In this document: positions 10,201 to 36,932 of the stretch, piece by piece | Position numbering within the stretch: the stretch's first letter is position 1 | Layout of the letters: every line of letters starts with the position of its first letter | IMG/VR virus record: IMGVR_UViG_3300047157_000138 | Coordinates: 1,083 to 65,082 of that record | DNA length: 64,000 nt | DNA from: a virus | Lineage: Duplodnaviria; Caudoviricetes | Direction: 5' to 3' (one strand) | Notes under the pieces: generated by a model | Seen by the model: only the letters and a program-made list of their open reading frames with translations | What the model was told of the DNA's origin: nothing | The model's database searches: none | Position numbers and translations under genes: made by a program

Positions 10201-13200
10201 ATGTATAAATACCGAATAGGCAAAAAAGAAGTTGTATTTAATTCCCCAGAAGAAAGAGAAAAAGGATTAGCAGAAGCTGAGGCAGCAGGGTTAACCATAG
10301 AGCTTATATACGATCACAGTGAAGAAACTGGTGATGGTTCTTTTAATATAAAAGATGATTGGGAAACTGATGATTTTACAACCGGTAAAGATTTAGATAA
10401 GGTTTTTCAAACAGATGCTGCAGAGGGTGCGGATGTGGTGTCAGAAACTACAGCACAAGATACGGAATTATCCTTGGAGGATGGTTCTTCGGTATCAATA
10501 GAGCCTCTTGAAGGTGATGATTTAGCAGTTATAGAGGGATCAGACCCTATTACTGAAACTATAAAGTTTGCTAGTCTTCCTGAAGAGGTTAAAAAAGAAA
10601 CAAGATTCCAAGCGGGGATAGCTAACACCATTGCAAAAACTTTCGTGGAAAGAGATGTTTTTCAATTAGAAGATAAATTACCTGGTCAAAATGTAAGCGA
10701 GATGGATAAAGAGGGTAAGCTAACTATGCTAACTTCCGAAGCTATCAACAATTATTTTGCAAGTCAGCCAGGCGAAACTTTATTAGACAACGAACAAATA
10801 GATGCAATAGCTTTTAATATTGTAAACGATTTAAAGCAAGCTGAAATAGCCGAAATAAATAATAAAAGCAGTATAGCTGCTAAAAGACTAAAAGATCCAG
10901 ACGCTTTTGTAGCTACTTCTATTAATAATAGCTTTGATAAAATGACTAAGCCTCAGCAAGAGCTTATAGTTGCTAGACAAAATCTTGCAAATGCTAATAA
11001 AATATTTGAAGGCGAAGATTATAAACAAAGAATGGCTAATGCTCAAAATATAATAGATCTTGAGGAAAAAGTAAGTGTTGCTAGAGACAATTATAAAAAG
11101 GGAGCCACCGGTCTTTCGGATATTAACACTGGAAAACAATTAACGCGGCCAGAGCTTATTCAATATGAGTTAGAGGGCAAAGAAACAGCAGATTATTCTG
11201 ATGAAATAAAAGATTTAATAAAATCTTTACCTACTACTAGCGAAAAGCTAAAATCTTCATGGATAGGAAATACTATTGAAATTCAAGAACTTAATGAAGA
11301 ACTACAAAATAAAGTAACATTAGTTTCAAAGCCCGGCAGAGGCGATGGTATACAGCGAGAGTATACTTTTGAACAACTAATGAAGCTCAGAAACGCAGGT
11401 ACAGACTTAGAAATATTCGATGTAGCCGTAGGAGAAGATGAGCAGTTAGCTCAAAGCATTAGCAACGATATGTTTGACAATTACAATAATCGTCGTAGAG
11501 CTCTTAATATAAAACAACAAGCTTTAGACGAACTGTATTTGTACGACATTGACCCTGGATCTGTTGAAAAAAAAGGTACTGGTTTACTTTCACAGTTTGA
11601 AAAAACAGCTTTAAAAGCTACCTTTGGAGATGTTATTGAAGATATTTACCCTCAAACGCAGAGGGATTTATTAGATGTTACAGAAAATGTATTTTCGGAT
11701 TTAGGCATAGAGACAACTGAAGCTCAAAAAAAGAATTTTGAAAGAACTTTTGGAATGCAAGTTGCAGAAGGGGTTGGTTATTTTGTACCTGAATTGGCTA
11801 AGTTTGCTGTAGCTAACGCAATAACCGGAGGTGTTTTAGGAACTGCTAAAACAATGGTACAAACTGCTAATGGTTGGAAAGCTATTACTTGGGCTAATAG
11901 AATAAATCAATTAAAAAGAAGTGGAAGTACTTTAAATAAAGCAAAAGGCTTAGTGTTCGATGCTATCGTTGAAGAGATTAAATTTAAAGGAGTAACCGGT
12001 GGTGAATCTGCCACTGGAGCTGGGGCTGGTTTTGCATTAGGCGGAGCCGGGTTTAGAGCGTTGCCTTTTAAATTAAGCCCTAAAGTATTAAGCTATAGAA
12101 ACCAAGCTGTAATAAACCCTATATTTAATAAAGTTGTAGGCGGCGGAATTGGTGGTGCTACATCTTCAGAGGTTGCTTTAGTTGTTGAGGATATGTACAA
12201 AGCAGCTACTACCGATAAAGATTTACTTAACCTACTTAAGAAAAGTTTTGTAGAAGATGCTGATGGCAACGATGTAGACGTTTTAGAAAGATACTTTGTT
12301 AATGCTGCTGTATTTTCTGCTATAGGGGTTACTCACATGAGACCTAAAGATATTAGAAAAATATCTACTGTTAGAAACCTTAATAATCAATATAACGGCA
12401 AACTAGACCTAGAAAACGCTATTAGAAAAAAAAATAAGGCTAAAGGCAAAATTATAGAAAAAGAAATGTCTGAGGTTGAGTATAATAATCTTATAGATAA
12501 AATTTTTCAAACGGAAAGTATTTTAGCAGTAGCTGATAAAGGTTATAATGAATTAGATTTATCTAAAATTAGAGAGCAAAGAGATGACGCTCAAAATTGG
12601 TTAAGTACAGATCCTAGCAAAAGAAGCGATGCTTTTACAGATTCCGCTCAAGCTAGAGCCGTTATAAATAAGTACGATCAGTCCATTACTAGAGTAAGAT
12701 CTGTTATCAATAAAACATTAGAAAACGTTGAAGAGTCTAATATTCTTGGTAATGATTTTAAATACAAGGTTGTAGACACCCTTCCTGAAGGAGACAAAGG
12801 ATTATTTCTTCCAAAGTCAAATGAAATTATAATAAATTTAAGCGAGTTTAAAGCGGGTGTTACTGAACATGAAATTAACCATGCTATCATTAATAAGCTC
12901 ATAACATCTAATTCTGAGTTAGCTATAGGACTAAGAAAAATAATAGAAGCCGATGTATCCGCTAAGCTAAAGGGAATAGAATTTAAGCTAGGAGAAGAAG
13001 ACTTAGAATTAAGCGAATGGATAGATAAAACTCATGCGGATAAAGACGAAAGAGGTAAAGCAGACGAGTATATATCATACCTAACTGAAATGTTTAATAA
13101 CCCCAAATACCGAGAAAAACTTATTGATACTGGTGTTATAAGCGATTTAAAAAATTCTATTAGCACTGTAATGGAAAACTTTGGAATGAAACGGGGGAGC

Positions 13201-16200
13201 GTAGCAGATCGTATAAATTTAAATGAAAATAATCTAAATAGAGCTAGCGATATTCTTGCATTTTTTGACCAACTAAGTAATGGAGGCAAAAAAGCCAGTA
13301 ACTGGAGAAGTAAATTTGATACTTACAATTTATTAGCCACTGATATTAAAAATTTAGAATTAGTAGATATTCCTACGGGTAAAAAAGTAGAGAGCATAGA
13401 AAAAGGGGTTGAAGAAGTTATGAAATCTAGTAGCATGAAAGAAGCTACCGAAGATTTTAAAAACAAAAACTTAGCTAAAATAAATGCTGAATTTGAAAAA
13501 ATGAAAGCAGAAGGCCAAGATGCTACGTCTATAGGGTTTAATATTGGACTTAAGTTTCAAGATATAGCTAATAAAACAATGGAATCTTATTTGAGGGCTA
13601 AAGATCTTAATATTAATGCTGATACCAAATATGATATTGTTGCGGATTTAATGTATGAAGCAATACCAAAAGCTGTTAATGCTTATGTAGAAGGGCAAAG
13701 ATTTATAGACTACGTTAAAGAAAACAATCTTTCTAAAGAAGAAGCAGCTGTTGAATTTAAAAATAGAAACCTTCGAGAAACTTCCGGAACTGAAAGATTT
13801 GAGCGTCTATATGGAATGGCTAAAGGTGAAGTTAAGCAAGCAACTATTACTTCATACCTTTTAGGAAATTTAACTAATCAATTAATAGGTGTTTTTAAAA
13901 TGCCTAAATACGAAGGTATATTTAAAAATGTTTCTTTTGATGCTCAGAAAGTTGATAAACTACAAGCTGAAGGTGAGCTGGATATTCCGGTGTCAGAGCA
14001 AGGGTTTGTAGACACATCTTCCCCTGTTAAAAATGTGCAAAGAACTAGGAAATCTGCTGAAAGCATGCTTGGCTTATCTGAAAAAACTATAAACACCGTA
14101 AATAAAGTAGTTGAAAACATAACTAAAAAGCCAATTACGGACATTGACGCTAAAAGCAAAGGAGATATTGACATGGGTCCTGGCGGTAAAGTTAATATAG
14201 TTATGCTAGATAATAATAGAGCTCGTGTAACATATCCAGATGGCAAGAAAGAAATAATGCTGGGTGCTCGTTCTCCATTAAATATTATTAAAAAAATAAT
14301 AAAAAAGTTTAGATCTGAAGCTTTCCAAAAGCTTCGGGCACCGAAAGCAACAGAAGCAGAAAAAATTAAAGCTCAAGAAGAGTTTAATGTGTATAGCAAG
14401 CTTACCGATTCGCCTCCTAAGTTTGTTAAAGAAAAGATATTAAAAACAGAATTAGGCTTAGCTGTTGAAAAAGGAATATATGAAGAAATATCTAAAGACG
14501 CGGGGGAGTTAGGCACTACAGAATATCAAGGTTTTATTGATAGATCATTTCCATTATTTAAAACTTATTTAAGTCAAAGAGCTATTAATAAAAGATTTCC
14601 AGATTTTAAAGAACCTTTGTTAGGGCCTGATGGAAAACAAGTAAGAGCTAAAACAGCAGCTGGAGCTCCATTGTTTCTTAAGAAAAATATAAAACTAGCG
14701 GAATGGAGAAAATATTTCACAGGTAAAGATAGTCCGGATTTACAGCTTAGAAGAACATCGTTACTAGAAGCGCTTTCTAGAGAGTTAGGTTTTGATAGGG
14801 TTATGGAAATAACTATAGATGAAGGACTTAGAAAACAATTAGAAAATGATCAAATAGCAGTTAATAACGAATTAGATAATTCTTACGTAGCTTTATTCCA
14901 AAAAGCAGTTGACAGAGGTGAAGCAAATGGAGGTGCTATGGCTTCTAAAGCTCTTATAGAAAGCTCTAAAGGGTCTGGTAAAGACTTAAAGGAACTTAAA
15001 AAACAATGGTTAACCATATTCGTTCCTGGAGAAATAGTTGACAAAGAAAAGTTGAAAAAAGAAAGACCCAACGACTATGAGCTTTTAGCAGATATAATTT
15101 CCAGAGTTAATGGGTTTGGTCTAGTTGAAATTCAAAAAGAGGGAGCGAAGTTAAGGGATCAAGGTGTAGGAGATTCAATAAATATTGAAGGAATTGAAAC
15201 AAATCCCAATAAAACAATGTCCACCCGAACTAAAAGCGAAAGAGAATCCTTAGGTGAATCTATGGTTATGTTTGATAAATTAGCATCTTCATTTGTTACT
15301 GAAGCATCTACTAGTCAAACCAGCGAGGTAAAAAGATTGTTATCTAATATGTTTGGATTTACCAGTCGTATAAGTCCGGAAGGCGAACCTGTTAATGCTA
15401 ATGAGTACGAAAGTATAATAAAAAACAATAAAGGTATAGCTGAAACAATGGAAGCCAGTCCGCAACTAAAAGAAGCTTGGACTAAGGCAGAGATATTATT
15501 AAAAGAAACTTCTTTATTAGGAGAGAACGCCAAAGGAAAAAAAGATATAAATGAAGATTTTTTAACAACTACTTTTAACAGAAATATTGATGCATTTATA
15601 AACAAATTTAACGAAATACAAGCATTACCTAAATTAAAAGGAGAGGGAGAAGTTCAAGCTATAAACAGAAGAATTAAACTTTTAGATAAATATGCTAAAA
15701 CCCCTGAAGGAAAAGTTGCGATTAAAGATATACAATTTAAAGATGCTTTATTAGAGGCTTCATTGTTAACCTTTGGAGAAATGTTTAATTTTGGTAGCAA
15801 GTCACAAAAAGCTAAAGTTGCCGATTTACTTGCTTCTACTCTGTTAAACAACGATGGCGTAGGCTTTAGAGCATTTTCGTCACAAAAATACTTTGCTTTT
15901 ACAGCCGAAGCTTCTTTAAAAAGAGCTAAAAACGAACATTTAGATCCTAAGCAAAAGTTTGGTGTTAGGGTTATGGACGCTTTTATAAAAGGTGATTTGT
16001 CAAATCCTGAAGCTGTTAAAGCATTAACCTCTGGATATAACAGTTTATACGGATCTGAAAGATATCAAAAAATAGCAGACAGTCGAATTGGAGCTGTAAG
16101 ATCTTTACCTAGCTATAAAAAAATGATAGCAGCTACGGCTAAGCCTACTAAAAAAGATGCTAGAAGGGTAAAGAAAATGATAGATGGAAAACTAACATCT

Positions 16201-18996
16201 AAGGACCTAGATGCACTATCTAGAATATATGATATAACTACAGGAAAAAGTGCGTTAGAAGAGCTTATGTCAGACACAGCGGCTAATTTAAACGCTTCAA
16301 TCATAAAGGCTGAGTCTAGTGCTTTCAAAACCAATGCAAAACTTTTTAAATCCGGTAAAATGGAGGAGTCTAATAACCTTTCTACCAAACAACAACTGGA
16401 TCAATTAGAAAGTAAAATAGATAGAAAAAGACTTCAGATAACTGATGAAAAAACAGGTGAAGTAAGATTTGAAGGAGACAAAGAATATAAAACTAGAATG
16501 GAAGAACTGGAAGCTACTTCTCCTGAATTATTCTTACCTAAGGAGCTTGCCGGAATGATAGAAAGGAAAGGCGGCGTGAAGGCAGATGAAGAAATATCGG
16601 ATTCTAAAGCTTTTATGGAAGGTAAGAAAAGACGAGATGATTTATTTTTACCATCTAATTCTGAAGATCTTCAAGGTTTACTATATAAAGTTTATGGTAA
16701 AGGCAAGCAAGGAGAAGAGGATATGGCTTTTATGAAAGAACATATACTTAGACCATTGACTAGAGCTGAGAACGATTTAAGTGTTTATAGAATGAATCTA
16801 GTAGTAGACTATAAAACACTTGAAGCTAAAATGAAGGAGCTTGGAAATAATAAAGCTGAAAGAGAGGCGGTTAAAAGAGTAGAAAAACTTGGGTATAACA
16901 TTGACCAAGCAGTAAGAGTTTATATATGGAATAGGTTGAACGAAAAAATTCCTGGTATTTCAGAGGTTGAGGTTGCACAATTAGCAGGGGCAGTTCATAA
17001 CTCAGAAAGACTTCAGGCTTATGCTAAAGGTATAATGAACATAACAAAAACATCTGATAAATATCCTAAACCTACAGCGAACTGGTTTAGAAGTAATGTT
17101 CAGTATGATTTATTTACTTATGCTACCGATGGTGTACGTGCCGATTTCTTAGCTCCTTGGCAAGCTAATGTGGATGCCATGTTTGACAAACAAAACCTGA
17201 ATAAGTTAGAGGCTAGGTTTGGAGGCAAGTATGTGTATAATCTTAAACAGATGCTTAAAAGAATTGAGCGTGGTAAATCAAGGCCCGAAAGTACTAATGA
17301 ATCTTTTAACAAAGCTTTAAACTATGTTAACGGATCTGTAGCTACTATTATGTTTTTAAACATGCGATCCGCAGCTTTACAAACTATATCTGCGGCTAAC
17401 TATGTCAACTGGACAGATAACAATCCTGTTGCTATAGGTAAAGTCATCGCGGAAAACCCTGCTGAATTTATAAGAGTTGCTAAAAAAATATGGAGCTCCG
17501 ATGCACTTAAAGATAGAAGATCCGGACTTAGAATAAATGTAGAAGAAGCTGAAATGGCTAAAGCTATAAACCAAGGGGGCAGAACAAATCTTCAGGGTTT
17601 ATGGGATACTATGGTTAAAGTAGGGTTTAAACCTACTCAAATGGCAGATAGTTTTGCTATTGTAACAGGAGGTACTCCTTTTTACATGAACAGAATGAAA
17701 ACTTATGAAAAGCAGGGGTTAAGTAAAAGTGAAGCAGAAAACAAAGCTTTTGAAGACTTTTTAGATGTCACTCAAGAAGGACAACAATCATCACAAATGG
17801 ACCGTGTTTCTAATATACAAACAGGTTTAATGGGTAGGTTAGTATTTTCATTTAACAATACACCTTTTCAAATGTCAAGAATACAAAAGAAAGCTGCTCT
17901 TGATTTAGTGAATAGAAGAGGTAGTGATCGTGCTAATGCGTCAAGACTAGCTTATTATGCTTTCATGCAAAGTACTTTGTTTTACGGATTGCAGCAAGGA
18001 TTTTATGCAACACTTATGTCTGACGACGATGACAAATTAACCGAAAAACAACAAGAAGAAAAGTATAAAGACTTTGAAAAAAGAGTGGATAAACTAGGTA
18101 AAAGTGTATTTCAAGGAATACTAACTGGCTCTGGACTACCTGGAAAAGTTGTAACAACTTTGTATAATACTGTAGACAAAGCAATCGAAGAATATGATAA
18201 AGGTTATCAGGGTAAAGACTTTTTTCCTATATTAAATCAAGCCTTGTCTATATCTCCAACTCTTGGTAGTAAAGCTAGTAGGTTAGGTAGAAACTGGGAA
18301 AGTTTAATATACACTGATTTCACTAAAAAAGGTAGAGAAATTAGAAATACTTATAGTGATTTTGATCCTAGAAATCCTAATGCTAAAGCTTACTTATCTA
18401 TGTTTGGAACTCTAACTAATATACCTTTAGATAGAATTGTTACTAAAATGGAAAATATTCAAGGAGTTCTTGATGACCAATCCTCTGGTTGGGAAAAAGT
18501 TGCAATGACACTTGGTACACCTAAATATCAATTACAAACTAAAGAACAAAACGAAGCTGATAGGCAAGCTAGAATAGATAAATTTTATAAAGAAAATACA
18601 CCAAAAGGCGATCGCGATTTTAATGCCATATCTGATTTAAATAAAAAAGAACAATTAAAGTTTATGACAGATCTTGATATAGAAAGTAATAAATATTTCA
18701 AAATTAAAAACGACGAAGAAAAAAGAATTAATTTTATAATTAGAAAAGGATTAGAAAAAGGAATAGACTTAGAAGTTGAAGCAGAAAAATATATAATAAA
18801 AAAGCCAGAAAGATCTGCTGAATATAAGGAGCTAGCTAAACTTACTAAAAAACAGCAGTTAGAATTAATGACAATTTTAGACATTGGTGATGAATATTTT
18901 AAATTAAAAGATGGAAAAGAAGAGGATCGCGTTAATTGGATCCTTAAAAAACAAAAAGAAAAATCAAACAATAATAAACAAAACTCTTTAAAATAA
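10201..18996 (+). CDS. Giant (2931 aa) putative internal virion / polyvalent protein with zincin HExxH motif and possible sigma-region-2-like segment
   Basis: Uninterrupted ORF; HEINH at 12868-12882 with downstream ADEYISYLTE; last large gene of the structural arm. Confidence 0.7.
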   Translation: MYKYRIGKKEVVFNSPEEREKGLAEAEAAGLTIELIYDHSEETGDGSFNIKDDWETDDFTTGKDLDKVFQTDAAEGADVVSETTAQDTELSLEDGSSVSIEPLEGDDLAVIEGSDPITETIKFASLPEEVKKETRFQAGIANTIAKTFVERDVFQLEDKLPGQNVSEMDKEGKLTMLTSEAINNYFASQPGETLLDNEQIDAIAFNIVNDLKQAEIAEINNKSSIAAKRLKDPDAFVATSINNSFDKMTKPQQELIVARQNLANANKIFEGEDYKQRMANAQNIIDLEEKVSVARDNYKKGATGLSDINTGKQLTRPELIQYELEGKETADYSDEIKDLIKSLPTTSEKLKSSWIGNTIEIQELNEELQNKVTLVSKPGRGDGIQREYTFEQLMKLRNAGTDLEIFDVAVGEDEQLAQSISNDMFDNYNNRRRALNIKQQALDELYLYDIDPGSVEKKGTGLLSQFEKTALKATFGDVIEDIYPQTQRDLLDVTENVFSDLGIETTEAQKKNFERTFGMQVAEGVGYFVPELAKFAVANAITGGVLGTAKTMVQTANGWKAITWANRINQLKRSGSTLNKAKGLVFDAIVEEIKFKGVTGGESATGAGAGFALGGAGFRALPFKLSPKVLSYRNQAVINPIFNKVVGGGIGGATSSEVALVVEDMYKAATTDKDLLNLLKKSFVEDADGNDVDVLERYFVNAAVFSAIGVTHMRPKDIRKISTVRNLNNQYNGKLDLENAIRKKNKAKGKIIEKEMSEVEYNNLIDKIFQTESILAVADKGYNELDLSKIREQRDDAQNWLSTDPSKRSDAFTDSAQARAVINKYDQSITRVRSVINKTLENVEESNILGNDFKYKVVDTLPEGDKGLFLPKSNEIIINLSEFKAGVTEHEINHAIINKLITSNSELAIGLRKIIEADVSAKLKGIEFKLGEEDLELSEWIDKTHADKDERGKADEYISYLTEMFNNPKYREKLIDTGVISDLKNSISTVMENFGMKRGSVADRINLNENNLNRASDILAFFDQLSNGGKKASNWRSKFDTYNLLATDIKNLELVDIPTGKKVESIEKGVEEVMKSSSMKEATEDFKNKNLAKINAEFEKMKAEGQDATSIGFNIGLKFQDIANKTMESYLRAKDLNINADTKYDIVADLMYEAIPKAVNAYVEGQRFIDYVKENNLSKEEAAVEFKNRNLRETSGTERFERLYGMAKGEVKQATITSYLLGNLTNQLIGVFKMPKYEGIFKNVSFDAQKVDKLQAEGELDIPVSEQGFVDTSSPVKNVQRTRKSAESMLGLSEKTINTVNKVVENITKKPITDIDAKSKGDIDMGPGGKVNIVMLDNNRARVTYPDGKKEIMLGARSPLNIIKKIIKKFRSEAFQKLRAPKATEAEKIKAQEEFNVYSKLTDSPPKFVKEKILKTELGLAVEKGIYEEISKDAGELGTTEYQGFIDRSFPLFKTYLSQRAINKRFPDFKEPLLGPDGKQVRAKTAAGAPLFLKKNIKLAEWRKYFTGKDSPDLQLRRTSLLEALSRELGFDRVMEITIDEGLRKQLENDQIAVNNELDNSYVALFQKAVDRGEANGGAMASKALIESSKGSGKDLKELKKQWLTIFVPGEIVDKEKLKKERPNDYELLADIISRVNGFGLVEIQKEGAKLRDQGVGDSINIEGIETNPNKTMSTRTKSERESLGESMVMFDKLASSFVTEASTSQTSEVKRLLSNMFGFTSRISPEGEPVNANEYESIIKNNKGIAETMEASPQLKEAWTKAEILLKETSLLGENAKGKKDINEDFLTTTFNRNIDAFINKFNEIQALPKLKGEGEVQAINRRIKLLDKYAKTPEGKVAIKDIQFKDALLEASLLTFGEMFNFGSKSQKAKVADLLASTLLNNDGVGFRAFSSQKYFAFTAEASLKRAKNEHLDPKQKFGVRVMDAFIKGDLSNPEAVKALTSGYNSLYGSERYQKIADSRIGAVRSLPSYKKMIAATAKPTKKDARRVKKMIDGKLTSKDLDALSRIYDITTGKSALEELMSDTAANLNASIIKAESSAFKTNAKLFKSGKMEESNNLSTKQQLDQLESKIDRKRLQITDEKTGEVRFEGDKEYKTRMEELEATSPELFLPKELAGMIERKGGVKADEEISDSKAFMEGKKRRDDLFLPSNSEDLQGLLYKVYGKGKQGEEDMAFMKEHILRPLTRAENDLSVYRMNLVVDYKTLEAKMKELGNNKAEREAVKRVEKLGYNIDQAVRVYIWNRLNEKIPGISEVEVAQLAGAVHNSERLQAYAKGIMNITKTSDKYPKPTANWFRSNVQYDLFTYATDGVRADFLAPWQANVDAMFDKQNLNKLEARFGGKYVYNLKQMLKRIERGKSRPESTNESFNKALNYVNGSVATIMFLNMRSAALQTISAANYVNWTDNNPVAIGKVIAENPAEFIRVAKKIWSSDALKDRRSGLRINVEEAEMAKAINQGGRTNLQGLWDTMVKVGFKPTQMADSFAIVTGGTPFYMNRMKTYEKQGLSKSEAENKAFEDFLDVTQEGQQSSQMDRVSNIQTGLMGRLVFSFNNTPFQMSRIQKKAALDLVNRRGSDRANASRLAYYAFMQSTLFYGLQQGFYATLMSDDDDKLTEKQQEEKYKDFEKRVDKLGKSVFQGILTGSGLPGKVVTTLYNTVDKAIEEYDKGYQGKDFFPILNQALSISPTLGSKASRLGRNWESLIYTDFTKKGREIRNTYSDFDPRNPNAKAYLSMFGTLTNIPLDRIVTKMENIQGVLDDQSSGWEKVAMTLGTPKYQLQTKEQNEADRQARIDKFYKENTPKGDRDFNAISDLNKKEQLKFMTDLDIESNKYFKIKNDEEKRINFIIRKGLEKGIDLEVEAEKYIIKKPERSAEYKELAKLTKKQQLELMTILDIGDEYFKLKDGKEEDRVNWILKKQKEKSNNNKQNSLK

Positions 18997-26255: not shown

Positions 26256-26290
26256 ATATATTATATTCTGGTAGTCGTTTTTGTTATAAT
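26256..26290 (-). promoter_or_regulatory. Early-class promoter motif (AAWACG-N11-ATAATA)
   Basis: Minus strand TATAACAAAAACGACTACCAGAATATAATATA. Confidence 0.7.
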
Positions 26291-27034
26291 GTGCCAGACT
26301 TCACATAATCCTTTAAATCAAATAGTGGATCTTCTATTAAGGTTTCATACGCTTCCATTGCTTGCGCAACTTTAGCTTTGCCTCGTTCATAAAATTCTTC
26401 AGAGCAATCATACACGCCTATTTGGTGTGTCTTTCTTACATATAACTAAGAAAACTAAATCGTAGCCAAATATCTCTTTATAAATGTACGCTTGGGAATC
26501 ATAGTTATATATATTTGCACTCTTTTTGAATTTGTTAATATCACCAGTTGTTTTAATATCTACAAGTAATCCTTGATCTTTATTAATACAATCGGCTTTA
26601 CCTTTCCACCAAGTACCATCAATTTCTTTGATACCAGGTTCTTCATTAATGGTATCACCTTTTAAAAGAGATACACAGACTTCGTTGTTTAAGATCTTAG
26701 CAATCATTTCTTCGCATCTGTCTACTTCTTTTTTAAGTAATAACATTTCTTTACCTGACTTTGCAATAGCTTCCTTATAGATCTTTGTTGTTCTTGTTGT
26801 TGCGTCTACATAAGGATAGTTAGCTTTAAGCTTTTCAGGCTCGAGTATTGCAGTGTGGAGATACCCACCGATAAGAAAGTTAATATTCGTACCGGTCGGT
26901 TTTCCAAATTGCTCAGGATCATTTAGTAACTTATATATGTCACTGTTAGATCTATATTGTCTTCCCACACCATTGTAATACTCTTCATCATTTCGTAGTA
27001 ATTCAACTACTTTTTTTTGTTCTGCTTTAGTCAT
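26284..27034 (-). CDS. PD-(D/E)XK exonuclease (RecE/ExoVIII-like); 3' end frameshifted
   Basis: SNSDI, G..LHTAILEP, KGKADC, LVDIKTT, YDSQAYIY; continues past 26408 in another frame. Confidence 0.8.
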
Positions 27035-27606
27035 TAAAGTGTTTCAGTTTTTACTGGCTTTGCTGCTTCTAAGGCTTTCTTAATTGCAGCCGTCATATCG
27101 TACTTACCAGCTATTGCACTTACATCGCCTCCTGCTTCTACAAATTTCAACGCCTTCTTATATAAAGCTGAGGTCTTACTTGTTATTTGCTCTTTTGCTT
27201 TTTTGCCTGAGTGATCGTTAGAAGCGTCCGCATCTGCAGTGTCATCGATTAGGAATAAATTACCTAAAGCGTATTTCTTTGCATAACTGGAGGCTGCTCC
27301 GTATTTTTGCGGCATACTCATACCTTTACTTAATAGGTCGACACCAACGATCGCTACAGCATGTATAGCATTGTCACTTTCTCCGTCAATAATTTTTGCA
27401 GTTGACTGCATGACCGGAGGATCAATACTAACCATCTCTTCAGATACAGTTACCGTTACATTATGTTTAATGCAAAACGGTTTTACAGCTTCCAGTATAT
27501 CTTCTGCTGCTCGGTAATAATATTTACCAAAGCCATTGTACCTGGATTTTTTAGCTTTCATTTCTGCCTGAATAGTAGCTAGTTTTTGGGTTAAATTTAA
27601 TTTCAT
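27034..27606 (-). CDS. ERF-family ssDNA annealing protein
   Basis: N.FGKYYYR.AEDILEAVKP and QKYGAASSYAKKYALGNLFLIDDTADAD. Confidence 0.88.
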   Translation of the reverse strand: MKLNLTQKLATIQAEMKAKKSRYNGFGKYYYRAAEDILEAVKPFCIKHNVTVTVSEEMVSIDPPVMQSTAKIIDGESDNAIHAVAIVGVDLLSKGMSMPQKYGAASSYAKKYALGNLFLIDDTADADASNDHSGKKAKEQITSKTSALYKKALKFVEAGGDVSAIAGKYDMTAAIKKALEAAKPVKTETL

Positions 27607-27694
27607 TTATATAGTGTTTATTGGTTTATAATTTGTGAACTTTGGTACATTATAATTATTACACATTTTTCAAGAAATTAATTAAGTGTGTAAC

Positions 27695-28457
27695 TTACAG
27701 GTAATCAACCACTTGTGACGGTGAAACATTGGCTATTAATTTGCTAATTGCTTCCTTTTTTATTTGCGAAATTCTTACGCCCTTAGCGGTATTGAACTTG
27801 AATACCTAAAAATTTAGCAATTTCAACTGGCATTGCATTTTATCACAATCAAGGCCAAAAGATAATCTTATTACCTGAAACTGAGTGTCTTTCTAAATGG
27901 GATTTCATTAAGCTCAACAAGTAAGCGTTTAATAAGATTTAAATTATATTTAGGGTGAAGTATCTTCTATCTGATGATATATATTTTCGCCGTTAGAATC
28001 TACTCCTGTTTCTAGCTTTATTAAATATGTGAATTAAAAAACATAGATACAATAGCTTCGTCACTTGTTTTTACGTATTTCATTTATCTTATGTTCAGGT
28101 ATTCTCATATCTCCCCTGTTAGCATATCTATATATCTACGTATAGCTCCTTTTATTCTTTTGCTAAAGAAACTTTTTAAAGTTTTTTCAATGTCTTCAGA
28201 ATCATTAAGTAGAGCCCAGTCTAATTTATCTATAGCTTTATTAACCTAGCATTACCTTCTTGTATAAGATCATTTATAGTCAGTACACCTGATGCTTGTT
28301 GTGACGTAGAAAATTTTCTAGCTAAGTTTTCTACAAGATACATAAACTTGATTATTAGCTCATTTCTAGTATATTCATCCCAAAATTTACCTTCGGGCAT
28401 AGATAATTTTAAATCTTCTTTGTATCTAACGTAATTTTGTACGTTGTATTTTTTCAT
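27695..28457 (-). CDS. Phage sigma70-family factor (frameshifted in this assembly)
   Basis: LVENLARKF, DLIQEGN..LIKA.DK, FFSKRIKGAIRR (region 2); VRISQIKKEAISKL (region 4) read across indels. Confidence 0.85.
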
Positions 28458-28717
28458 GTTATTGTATTGCTACGGATAGTAAAACCATCCCAGTTAATGT
28501 GACCCACATAAGTAGTTGCCACGCGTATATTGCTTTTTGTTCTCGTGGATTGTTTATTCCACCATGCTTTTATTTTCTTCATTGTCTTTAGTTTTACATA
28601 AGCAATATCCTTTGTCCAGCGTGCAATCGCATAGCCTCCATTGCATATTCTTATTTATTATATCTTCTTGCTTCAATTCAGTTAAACGTTAAAGTTTCGA
28701 TGTTTTTTGCAAAAAGT

Positions 28718-28750
28718 TGTAGTTTTCTCACAAAAACATGTGATTATATA
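28718..28750 (+). promoter_or_regulatory. Late-class promoter-like motif, antisense to the early arm
   Basis: TGTAGTTTT-N12-TGTGATTATA, same bipartite motif as 35370, 37598, 46382. Confidence 0.55.
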
Positions 28751-28855
28751 TGTATAAACAAATTTTTATTGTAGTTTAATTTTATTTTTTATCAAAAAAT
28801 ATATATTACTAGTTTTAAATACATTTTGCATATTCATTATATGTCACGGGTTGAT

Positions 28856-29107
28856 CTATTCATTTTCTCTTTGTATCTTTCTAAGATCACTAAGTTGTTT
28901 GAATGCCGATGCAGCCTTAGTAAAGTCTTCATTAACCTCATAATACTGGATCAATAATTCTAGCTCTTTAATTTGTTGCTCGTCAGTTACCATAATGTCA
29001 AGCCATTCTGAGGGATCTTCTTGCATAACTCTTGCGTCATCTTCCAACTTTTCAAATATTCTTTTTACTATTTCCGAGGACAAATCCTCTATTTCTTGTT
29101 CAGTCAT
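28856..29107 (-). CDS. Hypothetical acidic helical protein
   Basis: ORF; C-term EDFTKAA is weakly UvrB/C-like. Confidence 0.55.
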   Translation of the reverse strand: MTEQEIEDLSSEIVKRIFEKLEDDARVMQEDPSEWLDIMVTDEQQIKELELLIQYYEVNEDFTKAASAFKQLSDLRKIQRENE

Positions 29108-29448
29108 TTCTATTTTTATTTAGTGATATTTTAACGTTTTTCCATTTGCCTAAGACTATATGATTGTCTACTAAGAAGTCTATTTTAAATACGAATCTTT
29201 TATTCATTCTGTCTTCAACGGTCCATATACCATTCATCTTACCAGCGTTTTCAACACAAACCTCAGCGCCAAAAGTAAAGCCAAAAGCTTCAAGATCGCG
29301 TGATACAGCCAGCCACCGGTGTTTACCTGGGTTATCTGCATCGATCTTTTTGTTTGACGCCGTGATGAGGGGTGTCGAGTCTGTTTGATGAGGGTACAGC
29401 GTTGTATACGGTGGCGGTTACGAGTATGTATAGCAACAGCGTTTTCAT
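29100..29448 (-). CDS. 3D-domain (lytic-transglycosylase-like) protein, one apparent frameshift
   Basis: Manual translation MKTLLLYILVTATVYNAV/PHQTDSTPLITAS...WLAVSRDL...VEDRMNKR...IDFLV. Confidence 0.75.
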
Positions 29449-29678
29449 CGATCTAATTGGTATATTAAAGTATCAATTACATCTCTAGAAACCCAGCCAG
29501 CAACTTTATCATTGCCACAATTAATAAATTTGTCAGTAATAAAATCACCTTTAGTATTTATTAATGCAACTTCGAATGAAGTATATGAATCAGGTTCTAA
29601 GCCATTCTCGCGAGGGTTCGAGTATATACTATCACCAGCTTGAATGCTTATAGTTACTCTGCTTTTAGTTTTGAGCAC
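29445..29678 (-). CDS. Hypothetical phage protein (start probably further upstream)
   Basis: ORF with SIQAG..IYS.PR and FEVA motifs. Confidence 0.55.
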   Translation of the reverse strand: MLKTKSRVTISIQAGDSIYSNPRENGLEPDSYTSFEVALINTKGDFITDKFINCGNDKVAGWVSRDVIDTLIYQLDR

Positions 29679-29793
29679 AGCTCCAATACCGCCGTGAGAT
29701 TGTTTGTAAATTTTAAGTCGTCTATAGTTATCATTAGTTAAATATTATCATAGTTAGTATTTTTAGTGGAACACGAGTCCAACTTTGTGGTTG

Positions 29794-30375
29794 TTAGGGT
29801 TGTACCATTTGGTTGCGTCGTAAGTCATACTCACTGCTATCGTTATAGCCAGCACTGTCAATGAGATCACTAGTAGAGCTAAAAATTCGGGTGTGGCGAT
29901 CGGTCTTCTCATTTATTAAGTGTTTTTGTTTTCCTGAGTCACTGTATATAATATCATAGTTATCAGGTAGTTGTACTTCTTTAGTTAATTGTATCATATT
30001 AGTGTAAGAATAAAACTTGACATCAGGGTTATCTTTAGCAATTTGAATCCACTTATTTAAGTAAGATCTACTATAATAATCACCAGAGTCATGCACTCTT
30101 ACAAAGTCGGGTTTCTTACGTCTGATCTCTTCATTCATTGTTGGTATGAATTCATCAGTTTTACTCAACTCATATCGCTTTTCAAAAGCGGGTTGGACGT
30201 TAGACCAGATGTAAGCACCTTTCTTAGCATAACAGAACTTAACACACTCATCAGCCATAGGACAAGTAAGTTTACCTGATGCAGATTTGTATGCGGGTAT
30301 ACCGAAGTTCATTAGCTTAACACCAAAGTGTTTACTAGTCTTTTTAATTTTAGAATTTTGTGTAAGTAAGTTCAT
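29794..30375 (-). CDS. Gp88-like (radical-SAM-related) protein
   Basis: LLTQNSK, TCPMADECVKFCYA, VRVHDSGDYYS, FYSYT. Confidence 0.8.
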   Translation of the reverse strand: MNLLTQNSKIKKTSKHFGVKLMNFGIPAYKSASGKLTCPMADECVKFCYAKKGAYIWSNVQPAFEKRYELSKTDEFIPTMNEEIRRKKPDFVRVHDSGDYYSRSYLNKWIQIAKDNPDVKFYSYTNMIQLTKEVQLPDNYDIIYSDSGKQKHLINEKTDRHTRIFSSTSDLIDSAGYNDSSEYDLRRNQMVQP

Positions 30376-30391
30376 ATTGTTATTATTTAAT

Positions 30392-30427
30392 TATATTATC
30401 TTTATAGTTGCGTATTGTATCTGCAAC
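30392..30427 (-). promoter_or_regulatory. Early-class promoter motif
   Basis: TTGCAGATACAATACGCAACTATAAAGATAATATA. Confidence 0.75.
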
Positions 30428-30973
30428 TAGACGTCATCCATCCAAAGCCATATTGCTAAGGAGATCATTGCTAATACTATACCAATTAGCATTAGTCTAG
30501 TAGCACCATGTAAGCTTCAGGGTTTGTTTTGCGAAACCAGTTACAGAGCTTTGTTAAATTGAGTAATAAGTTTATGTTCTCTATTGGTGTACATTACTAT
30601 TCGCACCCTTTTATAAAGTCATACATAGATAACTCTATATTATTTAATTTTATTGATTCACCTGAAAATGGATTTTCTACATCAGCACCGTGGGGTATAA
30701 TTTACCCCCACTTTTAATAAACCATTTAGGTAGTTCTTGATCTTTCATATTATACTATTTTATTAAAGTGTTGTTTTTATTATTTGTATTAATAAACGCA
30801 CCAGCTGATGGCGATGCACGTAAGCCTTCCCACATACGTATGGTTCAACGTCTGATATTCGTAAGCAATGCGTTAGAACATTACAAATAATTTTTAGATC
30901 GGTTATAGTACGTTGCGTACTGAATTGCACTGGACTCGACGATCAAGTCTTCTTTAATTATTTTACTCATAGT

Positions 30974-31458
30974 TTATTCGAATTGCGAAGCGCAGGTGTA
31001 TAGCACTTCTTTGTTAGTATTAGCACAGTGTGCTTTCTCATTAATATAATAGTTACGGTATGCAGCAACAGAATCGCCTTCAACTTTGTATTCATCGGGC
31101 ATACATTGTGGCATTTCAGTTAGGACCAATATTAAATATAGGACCTGGTGTTTGTGACAATACGTCGCGACATTTAGTAATAGTTAGGTGTTCTTTATTA
31201 TAACGCTTTTTATATTCTTTACCAAGAGCCATCATGTGAAAGTATAGCCAAGCGTAGTTTGATCGAGAGGTCACGTACCCATATAGCTGATGGATGGTTT
31301 TTATGTGTTAACTTATAAGGTACATCGATTTCACTGTCAAGCATTATATGTGCAGAACAGAGTAGTTGAGCGGACTCAAGGATCATTTTAACAACGTGCT
31401 TATTGTATTGTAATTGTGCAGCACGTTCAGGGTCGGAGTTTAAATAAAATATATTCAT
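30974..31458 (-). CDS. Pyrimidine-dimer DNA glycosylase-like (DenV/Pyr_excise family), frameshifted
   Basis: MNIFYL...KHVVKMILESAQLL...YKLTHKNHPSAIWVR; downstream frame gives PQCMPDEYK..DSVAAYRNYY..EK. Confidence 0.75.
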
Positions 31459-31461
31459 ACA

Positions 31462-31500
31462 GTTATTATCTTTAAGTTAGTGACGTATTTAAGTCTGCGA
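31462..31500 (-). promoter_or_regulatory. Early-class promoter motif (spacer 3 nt longer than the others)
   Basis: CGCAGACTTAAATACGTCACTAACTTAAAGATAATA. Confidence 0.55.
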
Positions 31501-32063
31501 ACTTTATTTAGTTGTTCTATAGTTATTATTCGATCTAATATTTTTTGATGTTTACCAGTAGTATCTTCATTAGTATGTTTAATTTCTTTAAGTAATGAGG
31601 TATTTTGGTTGGCCAAACATAACCCTGATTCGATCAAATGCAATTCAACGTCAGCTTACATCGTCATATAGAATGAGTCGATCATTTGCTCTACTGCTTG
31701 GTCGATTAGATCTTCATCGTCACAGTATATAGACAAACCGTTGCGTATAGCATCTTGTAGTTGTTCAATGATTCGCTATTATTTTCACTGTAGATATACT
31801 TCATTCAGCAATACATATACTGTTAGGGTTGTGTGTACATACCCATACAGAGTAGCCGTCACGTGTAGATTCTTCGTATACATATAGATCTTGTTCTATC
31901 CCAGCGGTTATCGCTACACGAGCTTCGTAGTGGTTTAATACTTTCATAGTACAAACCAGATGAATCAGCCTCAATTTGTTTTTGACTACAGCCTAATTTT
32001 CTAACTCAGCTTCAATAATTTCATTCAGTTAATAGTTTCATATTTATTATATTTAAGGGTTTA

Positions 32064-32100
32064 TTATATTATCTTTAGGTTAACGTATTTAATCTGCAAA
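32064..32100 (-). promoter_or_regulatory. Early-class promoter motif
   Basis: TTGCAGATTAAATACGTTAACCTAAAGATAATATA. Confidence 0.75.
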
Positions 32101-32328
32101 ATTATCAAGTGCATCAAGTATGTACTCGTAGATTTCTTTTTCTTTTTGTTCACCATCAAGTATTAATCGCTGTTCTTCTAGAGTAATACCACCATAGATT
32201 TTAGTTTTTAACGCTTTTTTAGCATCTTCAATAGAAAACATAAGGTTTACTAGTTTAGATTGGATCTTGTCGGTCGCCAAAGTATGGAGGGCAGGATCTT
32301 CTCTAAAGATTTCATAATCTTCATTCAT
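32089..32328 (-). CDS. Hypothetical early protein
   Basis: 79-aa ORF on the early strand. Confidence 0.6.
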   Translation of the reverse strand: MNEDYEIFREDPALHTLATDKIQSKLVNLMFSIEDAKKALKTKIYGGITLEEQRLILDGEQKEKEIYEYILDALDNFAD

Positions 32329-32346
32329 AAGTTTAGTTTAAAGTTA

Positions 32347-32415
32347 GTGGATAGTGAGGAATCGAACCTCATACTCGTCAGCAGCACACCCGGTCGGGGC
32401 ATCCATACCTATCCT
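32347..32415 (-). ncRNA. tRNA-like element (canonical T-arm, 6-bp acceptor-like stem, no normal D/anticodon arms)
   Basis: GGATAG...TGAGG-TTCGATT-CCTCA-CTATCC. Confidence 0.6.
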
Positions 32416-32790
32416 CCTCGTAGACATTTGCTAGCAGCTTAAAGAAAGCGCTCGGTTATTTATTCGCTACGATAATGTGTGGCTGGTTTCTTCTTAAGAC
32501 ATTTAATGTTCATCCCAGTGTAACACCACTTAATAACACGTAGTTATCTTTACAAGTTCTCTTTGAGTATTTTTAGTACATGTGTACTTGCATTGTTACT
32601 CATCACACTCGTAGTCCCACCGTGCATGTAATTAGTCTGCAATCCGTAATACTACGTTAATATTTTATGTACTACACAGCAATGTACATTGATCCCATTT
32701 TCGCTGAACCACAAAGGGCTGGGAACTAACTAATAAATAATAAACTATAGGGTCATTTGCGTATAGCATACGCTGCCGCCCGAGCACATT
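32416..32790 (-). ncRNA. Candidate large structured non-coding RNA
   Basis: No ORF of 60 aa or more on the sense strand; 8-bp long-range stem GUGCUCGG/CCGAGCGC enclosing at least seven local stems. Confidence 0.5.
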
Positions 32791-33028
32791 CAGTTAAAAC
32801 TCAAATATTTTATTTCTTCATATTCAATTTTATTATTAATTCGGTTAATCGCTCATGCGTCGTTTTTAAGTATTTAAGATCAAGCTCGCTTATAACATTA
32901 TCATTTAGCCAATAATATCTTTGTTATGTATTTATTAGGTGCTTAGTCGCATACATCATAGACATTAGTAATGTAGGTATTCATCGGTTTAATTTGTATC
33001 ATAGTATATATTATTTTATTGGTTACAT

Positions 33029-33065
33029 ATATATTATCTTAGGTAGTGCGTATTCAAATTGCAAC
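33029..33065 (-). promoter_or_regulatory. Early-class promoter motif
   Basis: TTGCAATTTGAATACGCACTACCTAAGATAATATA. Confidence 0.75.
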
Positions 33066-33066
33066 G

Positions 33067-33258
33067 TTATAAATCTTTCTTGCGTATCCAGGTTAAACCT
33101 TTGTAGTTGAACCACTTAGTTACGCCGTCTCTATCATTGATCTCGTCATATATATAGGCAAACTTGTTTGGTAGGTTGGATAGATCGAAACCGACGTGAA
33201 CATCACCGTTTAATTTTAACTCTTTTTTAGTTCTTGAAAATTTTATAGTATTTGTCAT
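33067..33258 (-). CDS. Hypothetical early protein
   Basis: 63-aa ORF, WFNYKGLTW. Confidence 0.65.
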   Translation of the reverse strand: MTNTIKFSRTKKELKLNGDVHVGFDLSNLPNKFAYIYDEINDRDGVTKWFNYKGLTWIRKKDL

Positions 33259-33260
33259 AA

Positions 33261-33395
33261 TTATAGATTTGTTTTTTGGTAATAGTTAATTCTTTCTTCG
33301 ACATCAGAGCGGGATATTTCACCCGCCATTTGCCGTAATACATCAGTAGTCATATCGATCTCTTTGCCGTTAGGGCATGTAGTTATAAACTTCAT
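33261..33395 (-). CDS. Hypothetical 44-aa early protein
   Basis: Manual translation MKFITTCPNGKEIDMTTDVLRQMAGEISRSDVEERINYYQKTNL; fills the gap between neighbours exactly. Confidence 0.6.
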   Translation of the reverse strand: MKFITTCPNGKEIDMTTDVLRQMAGEISRSDVEERINYYQKTNL

Positions 33396-33730
33396 TATAT
33401 TTGATCTTTAAGTACATCCGGAAATGAAGTAGCTACTCTACCTTCAACTAATTTTTCTGCTTCACGAGAAACATTGTGTATCAGGTTGTTAAGTTCTTGT
33501 GGACCATATAGTTTGGTATATAGTTCGCGGAATCCATCGGATTTAACACTTTTATTGTTTAGGAACCACGTTATTTCAGTGTCCATAGTATCAAGTTTGA
33601 ATCCGGTTTTTTGATCACCGTATACGTATGCATATACTAGTACTTCAGCACGGATCAGGGGATCGACGTGTATAGCAACGTTGGTGTTCATGTTAAAAGA
33701 AATTTGGTCATTTAAGTGTACTGCTCTCAT
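33395..33730 (-). CDS. Hypothetical early protein
   Basis: 111-aa ORF with AAACT-ATG start context. Confidence 0.65.
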   Translation of the reverse strand: MRAVHLNDQISFNMNTNVAIHVDPLIRAEVLVYAYVYGDQKTGFKLDTMDTEITWFLNNKSVKSDGFRELYTKLYGPQELNNLIHNVSREAEKLVEGRVATSFPDVLKDQI

Positions 33731-33733
33731 AGT

Positions 33734-33934
33734 TTATTTATTTAAAGTGTTAATTATATTTTTTATAGTTTTATTAGTAATATTTTCTAGGGCTTCCCAG
33801 TATTCGTCACCATCAAGGTCGATGTTTACATACTCTAGTTGATGGTTAATAGTGTCATACATTTGATCGATAGTTACTTCAGCGATCTGTGTTGCGAGGT
33901 GATCAGCGTTAGTTCCAATCACGGTATTCTTCAA
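33734..33934 (-). CDS. Hypothetical early protein (true start probably near 34025, frameshifted)
   Basis: Acidic ORF; AACT-ATG at about 34025. Confidence 0.5.
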   Translation of the reverse strand: MKNTVIGTNADHLATQIAEVTIDQMYDTINHQLEYVNIDLDGDEYWEALENITNKTIKNIINTLNK

Positions 33935-34044
33935 TTACGTTAGACATTTGTTCTCTAGTTAACGACCAATAGTCGACGCCAGGGTATAGACGGTTTGCGA
34001 TGTTAAACATTTGTGTGTTACTCATAGTTATTAGTTTTATAGGT

Positions 34045-34236
34045 TTATAGTTCTTCGGTTAAGTGGTCAAGGGCTAATTGGTAGCCATAGTTTTTTGCCA
34101 TTTGCATTAGTAAAAAGTCATTTACACCGTTATTACTTTGTGCAAACATATCTAGTACTTCTTCGGTAGGTGTGGCAACAATACCACGATCTAACATTTG
34201 TTGTTTGGTTGATATAAAGTCTTGTATAGTTTTCAT
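34045..34236 (-). CDS. Hypothetical early protein
   Basis: 63-aa ORF, AACT-ATG start. Confidence 0.65.
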   Translation of the reverse strand: MKTIQDFISTKQQMLDRGIVATPTEEVLDMFAQSNNGVNDFLLMQMAKNYGYQLALDHLTEEL

Positions 34237-34505
34237 AGTTATTTTAATTTAGAGTTAAACATTGGCATTTTAGGTCTGATTTCAGTGAGTATGGTATCAC
34301 ATGGATCAGGTAGTATTTCATAACACTGATTGAAAGAGTCATTAATGTATTTAACTTGATCATCGCTAAAAGGGGGGTTGATTTTAGTTAAATCATCTTC
34401 AGGGTGAACAAAGGGAATAGAGTTGTTGCATAGTAGTTAAAAACTGAATGGCTTGGTTTTTTGTAGTAATCATAGTTTATAGTATTTATTATTATTAATT
34501 TCAAA

Positions 34506-34540
34506 TATATTATCTTACATAGTGCGTATTATATCTGCAA
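34506..34540 (-). promoter_or_regulatory. Early-class promoter motif
   Basis: TTGCAGATATAATACGCACTATGTAAGATAATATA. Confidence 0.75.
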
Positions 34541-34840
34541 CTATTTCGCTCTAATTTGGTCGGCACTACAATATGCCCACATTACTTTATTTATAAAGGT
34601 TATACGGTCAACCGAAACTTCCTCGATCGGAAAGGTGTATAGCATGGTTTCATAGAATTCCATTAACCCTCGGTCATTCTCTGCATACTCTGCTTTGAAT
34701 ACTTCGTATTCATCACCTTGCATGAAACTCATTCCGCATAGTTTATTTAGTACATTGTACTCTAGGTACATCCACCGATCATTCTCTTCTGACCATATAT
34801 GTTTTATAGTAGTCACTCTTAATTCTTCTTTATTCTTCAT
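34541..34840 (-). CDS. Hypothetical early protein
   Basis: 99-aa ORF. Confidence 0.6.
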   Translation of the reverse strand: MKNKEELRVTTIKHIWSEENDRWMYLEYNVLNKLCGMSFMQGDEYEVFKAEYAENDRGLMEFYETMLYTFPIEEVSVDRITFINKVMWAYCSADQIRAK

Positions 34841-35226: not shown

Positions 35227-35260
35227 AGTTTATTATATTTAGTTATTATTATTATTTGAT

Positions 35261-35290: not shown

Positions 35291-35313
35291 GTTAACCCAA
35301 CGACAAGGTATTT

Positions 35314-36931: not shown

Positions 36932-36932
36932 T

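Follow-up and report, generated by a model that had tools for sequence, protein, structure and literature searches.

Can a phage carry part of a sigma factor into its host, built into a giant protein of the particle? The question is raised by the record of an uncultured marine phage of the Caudoviricetes (IMG/VR record IMGVR_UViG_3300047157_000138, 65,082 bp), of which bases 1083–65082, a stretch of 64,000 nucleotides referred to here as the window, were analysed. Its + strand holds a giant open reading frame (ORF) of 2931 residues in the +1 frame (10201..18996), the last gene of a + strand block of structural genes. A preliminary description, made from the sequence alone, had noticed in this protein a segment that resembles region 2 of sigma-70 and had proposed that the virion injects a sigma factor, possibly released by an upstream zincin-like peptidase, that redirects the host RNA polymerase (RNAP) to an unusual early promoter motif. 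That interpretation stands in part: a diverged sigma domain 2 (sigma-2 below), its predicted docking on RNAP and the early motif were borne out, while a complete sigma factor and a general release by proteolysis were not. Residues 1099–1235 (13495..13905, +) are very probably a true, if very diverged, homologue of sigma-2. To the explanation that we favour as a whole, in which this domain is ejected with the giant protein, docks on RNAP and plays a positive part in early transcription, we assign a probability of roughly 0.4.

The segment lies where it had been placed, with FQDIANK starting at residue 1119 (nt 13555) and IGVFK ending at residue 1233 (nt 13899). An AF2 model of residues 1075–1290, built on a 46-sequence alignment, has a mean predicted local distance difference test score (pLDDT) of 77, with core blocks at 85–95, and in this model the domain shows the sigma-2 helical fold in the helix order of that family. 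When the model was searched with VIA-align against 48,161 representative PDB chains, the best match was the N-terminal fragment of SigR (1h3l_B; Z 6.8, root-mean-square deviation 3.4, 78 of 78 residues aligned), tied with 7d7d_F (Z 6.8, 95 residues aligned), which we take to be the late sigma factor gp55 of bacteriophage T4; pro-sigmaK scored Z 6.7. Further sigma matches included sigma32, ShbA, SigB, SigH, SigW, sigma70, RpoS, sigma28, SigI6, SigC, AlgU, sigmaE, CnrH, SigE and domain 2 of SigA. A sigma factor is named in 17 of the best 50 rows, and another six rows belong to initiation or sigma/anti-sigma complexes in which the matched chain may be the sigma or another. As a control from within the same protein, a model of residues 1234–1620 was searched in the same way, and none of its best 50 rows names a sigma factor. 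The structural check that had been proposed for this region thus came out for sigma domain 2 by VIA-align, and came back empty by Foldseek.

Within the modelled domain, two N-terminal helices (residues 1108–1117 and 1120–1133; 13522..13599, +) are the counterpart of sigma regions 1.2/2.1, a region-2.2-like helix follows (residues 1140–1164; 13618..13692, +) that bears the predicted contact face for the beta-prime subunit of RNAP, and a region-2.3/2.4-like helix (residues 1210–1233; 13828..13899, +) closes the fold. The loop between the last two holds a helical insert of 45 residues (1165–1209; 13693..13827, +). This insert, suspected from the beginning, is real: it is missing in the homologues P0040, P0042 and P0043, in which both flanks align, and also in relatives of the FNPxKNxSL type discussed below. 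A reading of the insert as a lysozyme was rejected as too weak (Pfam Lysozyme_like, E 0.02–0.04 in three of 21 members). In the homologue alignment the segment forms a conserved block, and across the superfamily its best-conserved stretch is the region-2.3/2.4-like helix, with a near-invariant Tyr1219 at a position that holds Tyr, Trp or His across the family. In the region-2.2-like helix, D1145 aligns with the sole invariant column, an Asp, of six Escherichia coli sigma factors.

Comparison of sequence profiles carries the claim of descent. Seven of eight other giants inspected by eye contain an insert-less segment, FNPxKNxSLxGWI, 165–260 residues after a zincin motif of their own. A hidden Markov model (HMM) seeded on those seven segments and iterated five times over 129 giants reaches 87 of them, including residues 1099–1235 of the window's protein (P0001) at E 2.6e-21, and when the matches of the subfamily profile are added the domain is carried by 107 of the 129. 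The pooled domain alignment (84 rows; number of effective sequences, Neff, 6.4) was compared by hhalign with 35 cellular sigma-2 sequences and matched them at a probability of 88.5% and P 2.7e-6 over 79 columns, in the register of regions 2.1–2.4; the reversed query gave P 0.54, and the highest score from 60 column shuffles was 8.7, against 34.3 observed. The same alignment matched the lineage's own stand-alone sigma family (26 sequences) at a probability of 85.1% and P 6.1e-6 over sigma columns 29–112 (reversed, P 0.47). In a positive control, the sigma-2 profile was matched by the phage sigma family at P 3e-9. Because the pooled profile matches two independent sigma profiles while the reversed and shuffled controls fail, we conclude that the domain very probably descends from sigma-2. 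The likeness that had been seen by eye is thus beyond chance, at the fold and profile–profile level only (17 of 50 VIA-align rows; hhalign P 2.7e-6 and 6.1e-6).

The window's own subfamily gives a weaker and mixed picture. By hhalign it matched six E. coli sigma-2 sequences at P 0.05–0.3. The suggestion that the profile be tried with and without the insert was half borne out: masters without the insert matched the 35-sequence sigma-2 profile at P 0.0089 and 0.026 (reversed, 0.3), while subfamily alignments that kept it gave P 0.2–0.8. When the full-length family was aligned on an insert-less master, the best local sigma-2 match in about 2,800 residues was the domain segment (residues 1067–1150 of P0040 and 1124–1208 of P0042; length-corrected P 0.2), and with the window's protein as master the best match lay elsewhere (P 0.79). 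A search of 1.84 billion representative proteins with the subfamily profile returned 22 matches and no free-standing sigma-like protein; 17 of these are longer than 2,000 residues, and the five shorter ones (184–1583 residues) are probably fragments.

The partner predicted for the domain is the one a sigma factor would have. The domain, with its own subfamily alignment, was co-folded with residues 220–380 of the beta-prime subunit of Flavobacterium johnsoniae (RPOC_FLAJ1), and scored 0.66 against 0.00 for the best of three controls. The mark that it passed is reached by 116 of 157 solved complexes and by two of 215 mismatched pairs, a calibration that is rough here since the domain's own alignment was used. 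Runs agreed in at least 97% of contacts, with a partner pLDDT of at least 85. The predicted interface joins beta-prime residues 291–323 and 337–339 to residues 1109–1117 and 1139–1153 of the phage protein, and one helical face of the region-2.2-like helix makes the predicted contacts (Y1144, D1145, A1148, D1149, Y1152 and E1153). Co-folding with a Flavobacteriia beta-prime had been put forward as a check, and its outcome favours the proposal: the predicted docking is the canonical mode of sigma-2, with beta-prime 291–323 presumed to be the clamp coiled coil. Docking of the domain on RNAP appears rather likely on this model.

Nothing that would complete a sigma factor was found after the domain, and on this point the proposal of a complete injected sigma is not supported. 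The fold search with the model of residues 1234–1620 found no sigma-3 or sigma-4 (0 of 50 rows naming sigma), the Pfam model of region 4 (PF04545) had no match in the genome at E ≤ 10 while control matches were obtained in 14 genomes, and hhalign of residues 1236–1620 against full-length sigma families gave P 0.29–0.41. All three results count against the reading that we favour; since neither fold search, region-4 model nor hhalign found sigma-3 or sigma-4 after the domain, the module is, as far as these searches go, sigma-2 only. A sigma-4 at residues 1281–1305, suggested by eye from 'LGLSEKT...', was rejected: distant homologues do not keep the turn, and the reading had no support from fold search or hhalign.

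The region that follows the domain is a conserved alpha/beta region (residues 1234–1620; 13900..15060, +) of unrecognised fold, confidently modelled (pLDDT 72), with a best fold match of Z 5.6. It holds ten invariant residues, including K1410, K1464-R1465-F1466, E1528, D1532 and R1572, and may be an enzyme of unknown kind.

The polymerase that would give such a virion protein its own transcription was also sought. The first half of the early motif described below is reminiscent of the promoters used by single-subunit polymerases of the T7 type. In the giant ORF there is no DxDxD motif, no Pfam family at E ≤ 1 (polymerases included) and no match to a PDB sequence; PF00940 and Pfam RNA_pol matched nothing in the genome, in a search whose positive control matched nowhere either. 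Fold modelling covered residues 1075–1620, and the polymerase negatives elsewhere come from motif and sequence searches. A cryptic T7-like polymerase was considered and set aside, as no Pfam RNA_pol match supports it, though one may still lie hidden in residues 1–840 or 1620–2931, where the negatives come from motif and sequence searches.

If the domain acts on transcription, the early arm of the genome is where its effect would be expected. This arm (26259..37373, − strand) contains, by pattern search, ten exact copies of AAWACG-N11-ATAATA, starting at 26259, 30394, 32067, 33032, 34508, 35263, 35859, 36551, 36653 and 37351. With one mismatch allowed there are 14 sites, against 2.8 expected and at most seven in 100 shuffles. 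The sites form two sub-classes with extra conserved upstream bases, GTGTATAGCA before sites of the AAAACGACTA type and GTTGCAGAT before sites of the AATACGCAC type. The motif is present and strand-biased in 37 of 50 related records, in which a backwards control pattern occurs zero or one time per record, and in 34 of 187 loci every copy lies on the strand of the stand-alone sigma gene. The preliminary description had called the motif unlike the promoters of the Bacteroidota, and rightly so: TAnnTTTG occurs 94 times against 93 expected, and its bipartite form four times against 4.4. It is plausible that the early arm uses something other than standard host promoter logic.

The stand-alone sigma gene had been said to lie behind the early motifs. 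This is true of the lineage, in which the gene is intact in all 26 relatives examined (250–254 residues; 250 in L108), and in three loci (L117, L121 and L135) an early motif ends 6–7 nt before its start codon. In the window's record the gene (~27650..28457, −) is broken by at least 11 insertions or deletions of 1–3 nt relative to L108. Since the motif precedes the sigma gene, something must read it before the stand-alone sigma exists, and no other reader for this non-host-like motif was found in the genome.

The evidence points both ways on whether the sigma-2-like domain is that reader. In sigma factors the region-2.3/2.4 helix faces DNA and not the core enzyme, and the best-conserved part of the domain is its counterpart of this DNA-facing helix; the position of the sigma gene behind the motif also speaks for the domain. 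Presence and absence first looked negative, the subfamily profile finding its type of segment in four of the 50 related viral records (and the C-terminal core of the giant protein in all 50) against 37 with the motif, until the giants proved to carry a divergent form of the domain. All 12 giants taken from records with the motif have it, as do seven of 13 from records without an exact motif; the sample is related and non-random, and no conclusion is drawn from it. Against a reading role, the early motif is near-constant across lineages whose giant-protein domains cannot find each other by HMM, and the stand-alone sigma is 70–93% identical; the contrast tells against our explanation.

Upstream of the domain lies a zincin-like region (residues ~840–1000; 12718..13200, +). 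The sole HExxH of the protein, HEINH, occupies residues 890–894 (nt 12868–12882), 229 residues before the segment, close to the ~220 first estimated, and a conserved EEY-type Glu lies about 65 residues after it. HExxH is intact in 36 of 46 homologues; in the other 10, including all three that lack the insert, the first His is Q or E. Proteolytic release by the zincin, which had been suggested, accordingly keeps its motif and spacing and loses its generality: because the first His is lost in 10 of 46 homologues, cleavage is not a general requirement. Iyer et al. (2017; PMC5512222) report zincin-like peptidases to be the commonest domain of polyvalent proteins and propose autoprocessing by them, and the combination of HExxH and an EEY-type Glu, as far as sequence goes, fits the peptidase described there. 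For the C-terminal core a weak lead comes from the ESM Atlas, in which the nearest of the named clusters contain LPD39 (28% of members) and LPD38; Pfam LPD or MPTase models had no match on the giant protein at E ≤ 1. Most likely the protein is packed in the head and ejected with the DNA.

A mechanism can be drawn from these parts. The giant 'polyvalent' protein would be packed in the head and ejected with the DNA; its domain would dock on the clamp helices of the host beta-prime subunit through the region-2.2-like helix, as sigma-2 does, and by recruiting the core enzyme would act positively, letting the phage take hold of host transcription as it enters. It might further assist in opening a −10-like element rich in A and T, for which the ATAATA half of the early motif is an example. 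A precedent for action by sigma-2 alone would be the late factor of phage T4: gp55 has a sigma-2-like domain only, and reads a single A/T-rich −10-type element without a −35 reader. It is a small free protein made during infection that needs a co-activator and a sliding clamp, whereas the phage domain is part of a giant, probably packaged protein. That the domain has a positive role in early transcription at all is put forward tentatively. A bolder version, in which a virion-delivered sigma-2-only module, perhaps cut out of the giant protein, seizes core RNAP at DNA entry and opens AAWACG-N11-ATAATA promoters before a conventional sigma takes over, and in which such modules are widespread in abundant uncultured marine phages of Flavobacteriia, we consider unlikely as a whole.

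Several results weigh against this explanation. Pfam sigma models matched the domain segments in none of 21 members and none of seven insert-less relatives at E ≤ 10; on the whole giant protein there is no Pfam sigma match, the domain remaining below the gathering threshold of Sigma70_r2; a six-frame scan of the genome with PF04542 matches the broken stand-alone sigma gene only; and a HMMER profile found no sigma among PDB sequences. The P values of 0.0089 and 0.026 for the insert-less masters are weak, those with the insert kept weaker still, and the pooled domain matched a narrow RpoE-only profile at P 0.097. On the structural side, Z scores of 5–7 are, by the tool's own guidance, often seen with helical bundles, helical proteins without relation to sigma reach similar values (Sld7, 6.4; PG0816, 6.1), and Foldseek of the domain model against PDB and BFVD returned nothing below E 0.5. 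Taken by themselves, such low Z scores and the empty Foldseek, Pfam and HMMER searches would suit a chance likeness, a common four-helix arrangement without descent from sigma; this we find hardly credible given that two independent sigma profiles are matched in the expected register at P of about 1e-6 to 1e-5, with failing reversed and shuffled controls, that at least a third of the 50 best-ranked among 48,161 chains are sigma entries, and that the best local match in the whole protein coincides with the structural match. A second possibility accepts the descent and denies the function: the domain would have lost its role at RNAP and become a helical part of the ejection machinery with a structural or protein-binding task. 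Its divergence past detection by Pfam and HMMER, the 45-residue insert in the loop beside the DNA-facing helix and its burial mid-chain in 2931 residues are what one would expect of such a relic, as is the absence of the two Trp of sigma. In sigma-70 the aromatic residues of regions 2.3/2.4, these two Trp among them, serve −10 recognition and melting, and their positions in the window's protein are Gly and Asn, which also speaks against our explanation. Loss of the role is nevertheless quite unlikely in our estimate, as the invariant Asp and the region 2.2 contact face are kept, the co-fold finds the canonical partner surface with controls at 0.00, and the domain persists in 107 of 129 giants despite extreme divergence. 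The co-fold is itself open to the objection that its pass may be a mere restatement of the likeness, solved sigma/beta-prime complexes being abundant, and this too counts on the other side.

The remaining alternatives agree that the domain is a sigma-2 relative and differ in what it does, or where. It could bind the sigma site of RNAP negatively, as an ejected sigma mimic that keeps the host sigma off or pushes it aside, so as to shut off the host or tether the ejection complex, with the motif read by other means. Such a mimic would account for the co-fold on the beta-prime surface used by sigma, for the presence of sigma-2 without sigma-4 and for strong divergence of the domain beside a constant early motif, and there is a parallel in mycobacteriophage D29, whose gp53, as presented in the report (10.64898/2026.10.05.756390), displaces sigma by mimicking its engagement. 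We regard it as rather unlikely, because conservation is greatest in the region-2.3/2.4-like helix with its near-invariant Tyr/Trp, the part that faces DNA in sigma factors, and because the genome yielded no other reader of the motif. The stronger claim of the preliminary description, that the zincin releases a domain which alone redirects RNAP to AAWACG-N11-ATAATA, with the stand-alone sigma acting later, can draw on all the evidence for our own explanation, on the sigma gene behind the motifs (with its gap of 6–7 nt in L117, L121 and L135), on a zincin motif 165–260 residues upstream of the domain in the eight giants with both, and on the autoprocessing that Iyer et al. (2017; PMC5512222) propose for peptidases of polyvalent proteins. 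It meets the lack of any −35-reading domain, the loss of the first zinc ligand in 10 of 46 homologues, including all three insert-less ones, and an upstream AAWACG half-site that nothing ties to the domain, so that it too seems improbable, if not implausible. Finally, the giant protein may act in the cell that produces it, for example as a late transcription factor, its domain never being delivered. The family has no proteomic evidence of packaging, a lack of virion proteomics that also counts against the explanation we favour, and with zero matches in the 50,697 phage records on deposit it has no known member in culture. However, a gene that closes the structural block, a chain free of cysteine, hydrophobic stretches rich in Gly and a zincin are all in keeping with an ejected protein, and the nearest named Atlas clusters carry the polyvalent-protein domains LPD38/LPD39; we consider a role confined to the producing cell highly unlikely.

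The family to which the giant protein belongs is large and so far known from environmental sequence. There are 100 homologues of 1932–4075 residues, mostly from marine metagenomes, and 599 unconfirmed matches in IMG/VR to patterns taken from the distant C-terminal core. The C-terminal core (residues ~2100–2800; 16498..18600, +) is common to 99 of the 100 and to the 50 related viral records, and 45 of the 100 (P0002–P0046) also align over the sigma-2-like segment. A tblastn search of the 50,697 deposited phage records gave the zero matches just mentioned, from which it follows that no cultured family member is known. Pfam and PHROGs recognised nothing on the whole protein or on pieces of it, phmmer and the family profile found no sigma among PDB sequences and returned designed helical proteins alone, at E > 1, and an ESM Atlas search of the segment gave no usable match. 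The protein has no cysteine in its 2931 residues; it shows Gly-rich hydrophobic stretches at residues ~520–720, and at its C-terminus two copies of a lysine-rich repeat of about 60 residues.

The gene's surroundings point to phages of Flavobacteriia. The giant ORF ends a + strand block that holds a gene for a crAss muzzle C-terminal domain, which adjoins it, and tail-fibre-like genes. The best protein matches of the window among deposited phages are all to phages of Flavobacteriia: the primase-helicase is 44% identical to that of Cellulophaga phage phi10:1, and the muzzle-like structural protein has 87 matching records with Flavobacterium, Cellulophaga, Tenacibaculum or Maribacter as hosts, apart from one exception named only Caudoviricetes. 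The positional analogue in Cellulophaga phage phi38:1, an annotated structural protein, is without detectable relation to the giant protein, a further point against our explanation, and homology with this protein (gp101) was rejected at a best E of 0.01. Elsewhere on the + strand the window encodes a GroEL-like chaperonin (Cpn60_TCP1, E 1.4e-42; 46473–47801) and a GroES-like co-chaperonin (PHROG 13932; 52995–53531).

The record itself is uneven in quality. Like the sigma gene, window positions 53800–57800 and 59900–62400 (+) are shattered into short frames, with PHROG matches to a terminase (54091–54471), a portal protein (57784–58452) and virion structural proteins, while the giant ORF (8.8 kb) is intact, as are most of the other genes; errors in patches of the assembly could be responsible, or else decay of this copy. 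An exact repeat of 350 nt occupies window positions 1073–1422 and 63651–64000, the latter reaching the end of the record. Related but diverged sequence precedes each copy, with ORFs 45–1115 and 62474–63475 both matching PHROG 13977. The pattern points to record ends that overlap imperfectly, even though in IMG/VR the record is classed as linear and free of end repeats.

Set beside known systems, the domain is most directly comparable to domain 2 of sigma-70 (regions 1.2 and 2.1–2.4; PF04542), especially that of the extracytoplasmic function (ECF), or group 4, factors such as SigR (1h3l). The two have their fold and the order of their helices in common, and both keep the region 2.2 Asp with its contact face and an aromatic residue where the 2.3/2.4 helix begins; their profiles match over about 80 columns, and the phage domain is predicted to dock on beta-prime as well. 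Unlike sigma-70 domain 2, the phage domain falls below the thresholds of Pfam and HMMER, is embedded in 2931 residues, carries the 45-residue insert, shows no sigma-4 after it and does not keep the two Trp. The virion RNA polymerases of N4-like and crAss-like phages are likewise giant proteins of the structural block, which enter the cell with the DNA and initiate early transcription at promoters specific to the phage, and the crAss-muzzle-like neighbour adds to the parallel; the window's protein differs in showing no polymerase signature, and its sigma-2 domain would use the host enzyme. According to Iyer et al. (2017; PMC5512222), the virion RNA polymerase of N4 is fused to a zincin-like peptidase. 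The polyvalent proteins treated in that paper are also giant and multidomain, with a zincin-like HExxH, and delivery together with the DNA is proposed for them; its main text nowhere uses the word 'sigma'. D29 gp53 differs from the domain in being, as its report has it (10.64898/2026.10.05.756390), a small protein made during infection that displaces sigma. In the literature searched, no virion protein, ejection protein or polyvalent protein turned up for which a sigma domain had been reported. The sigma-2 domain itself is known; the novelty lies in how far this copy has diverged, in the insert that it holds and in its position within a giant protein that is probably ejected.

The sigma factors known so far are free proteins that the cell makes. 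Known phages either leave the transcription of their first genes to the host sigma or bring a complete RNA polymerase along in the particle. An ejected sigma-2 domain, if true, would let a phage take control of host transcription at once and at lower cost, and would form a third way to start phage early genes, beside host-like promoters and virion RNA polymerases. It would also explain early promoters unlike those of the host in phages of the Bacteroidota, hosts whose own promoters are unusual. The size of the family, with its 100 homologues, its core in all 50 related records and its 599 pattern matches, means that such a route, should it exist, would belong to a large group of phages.

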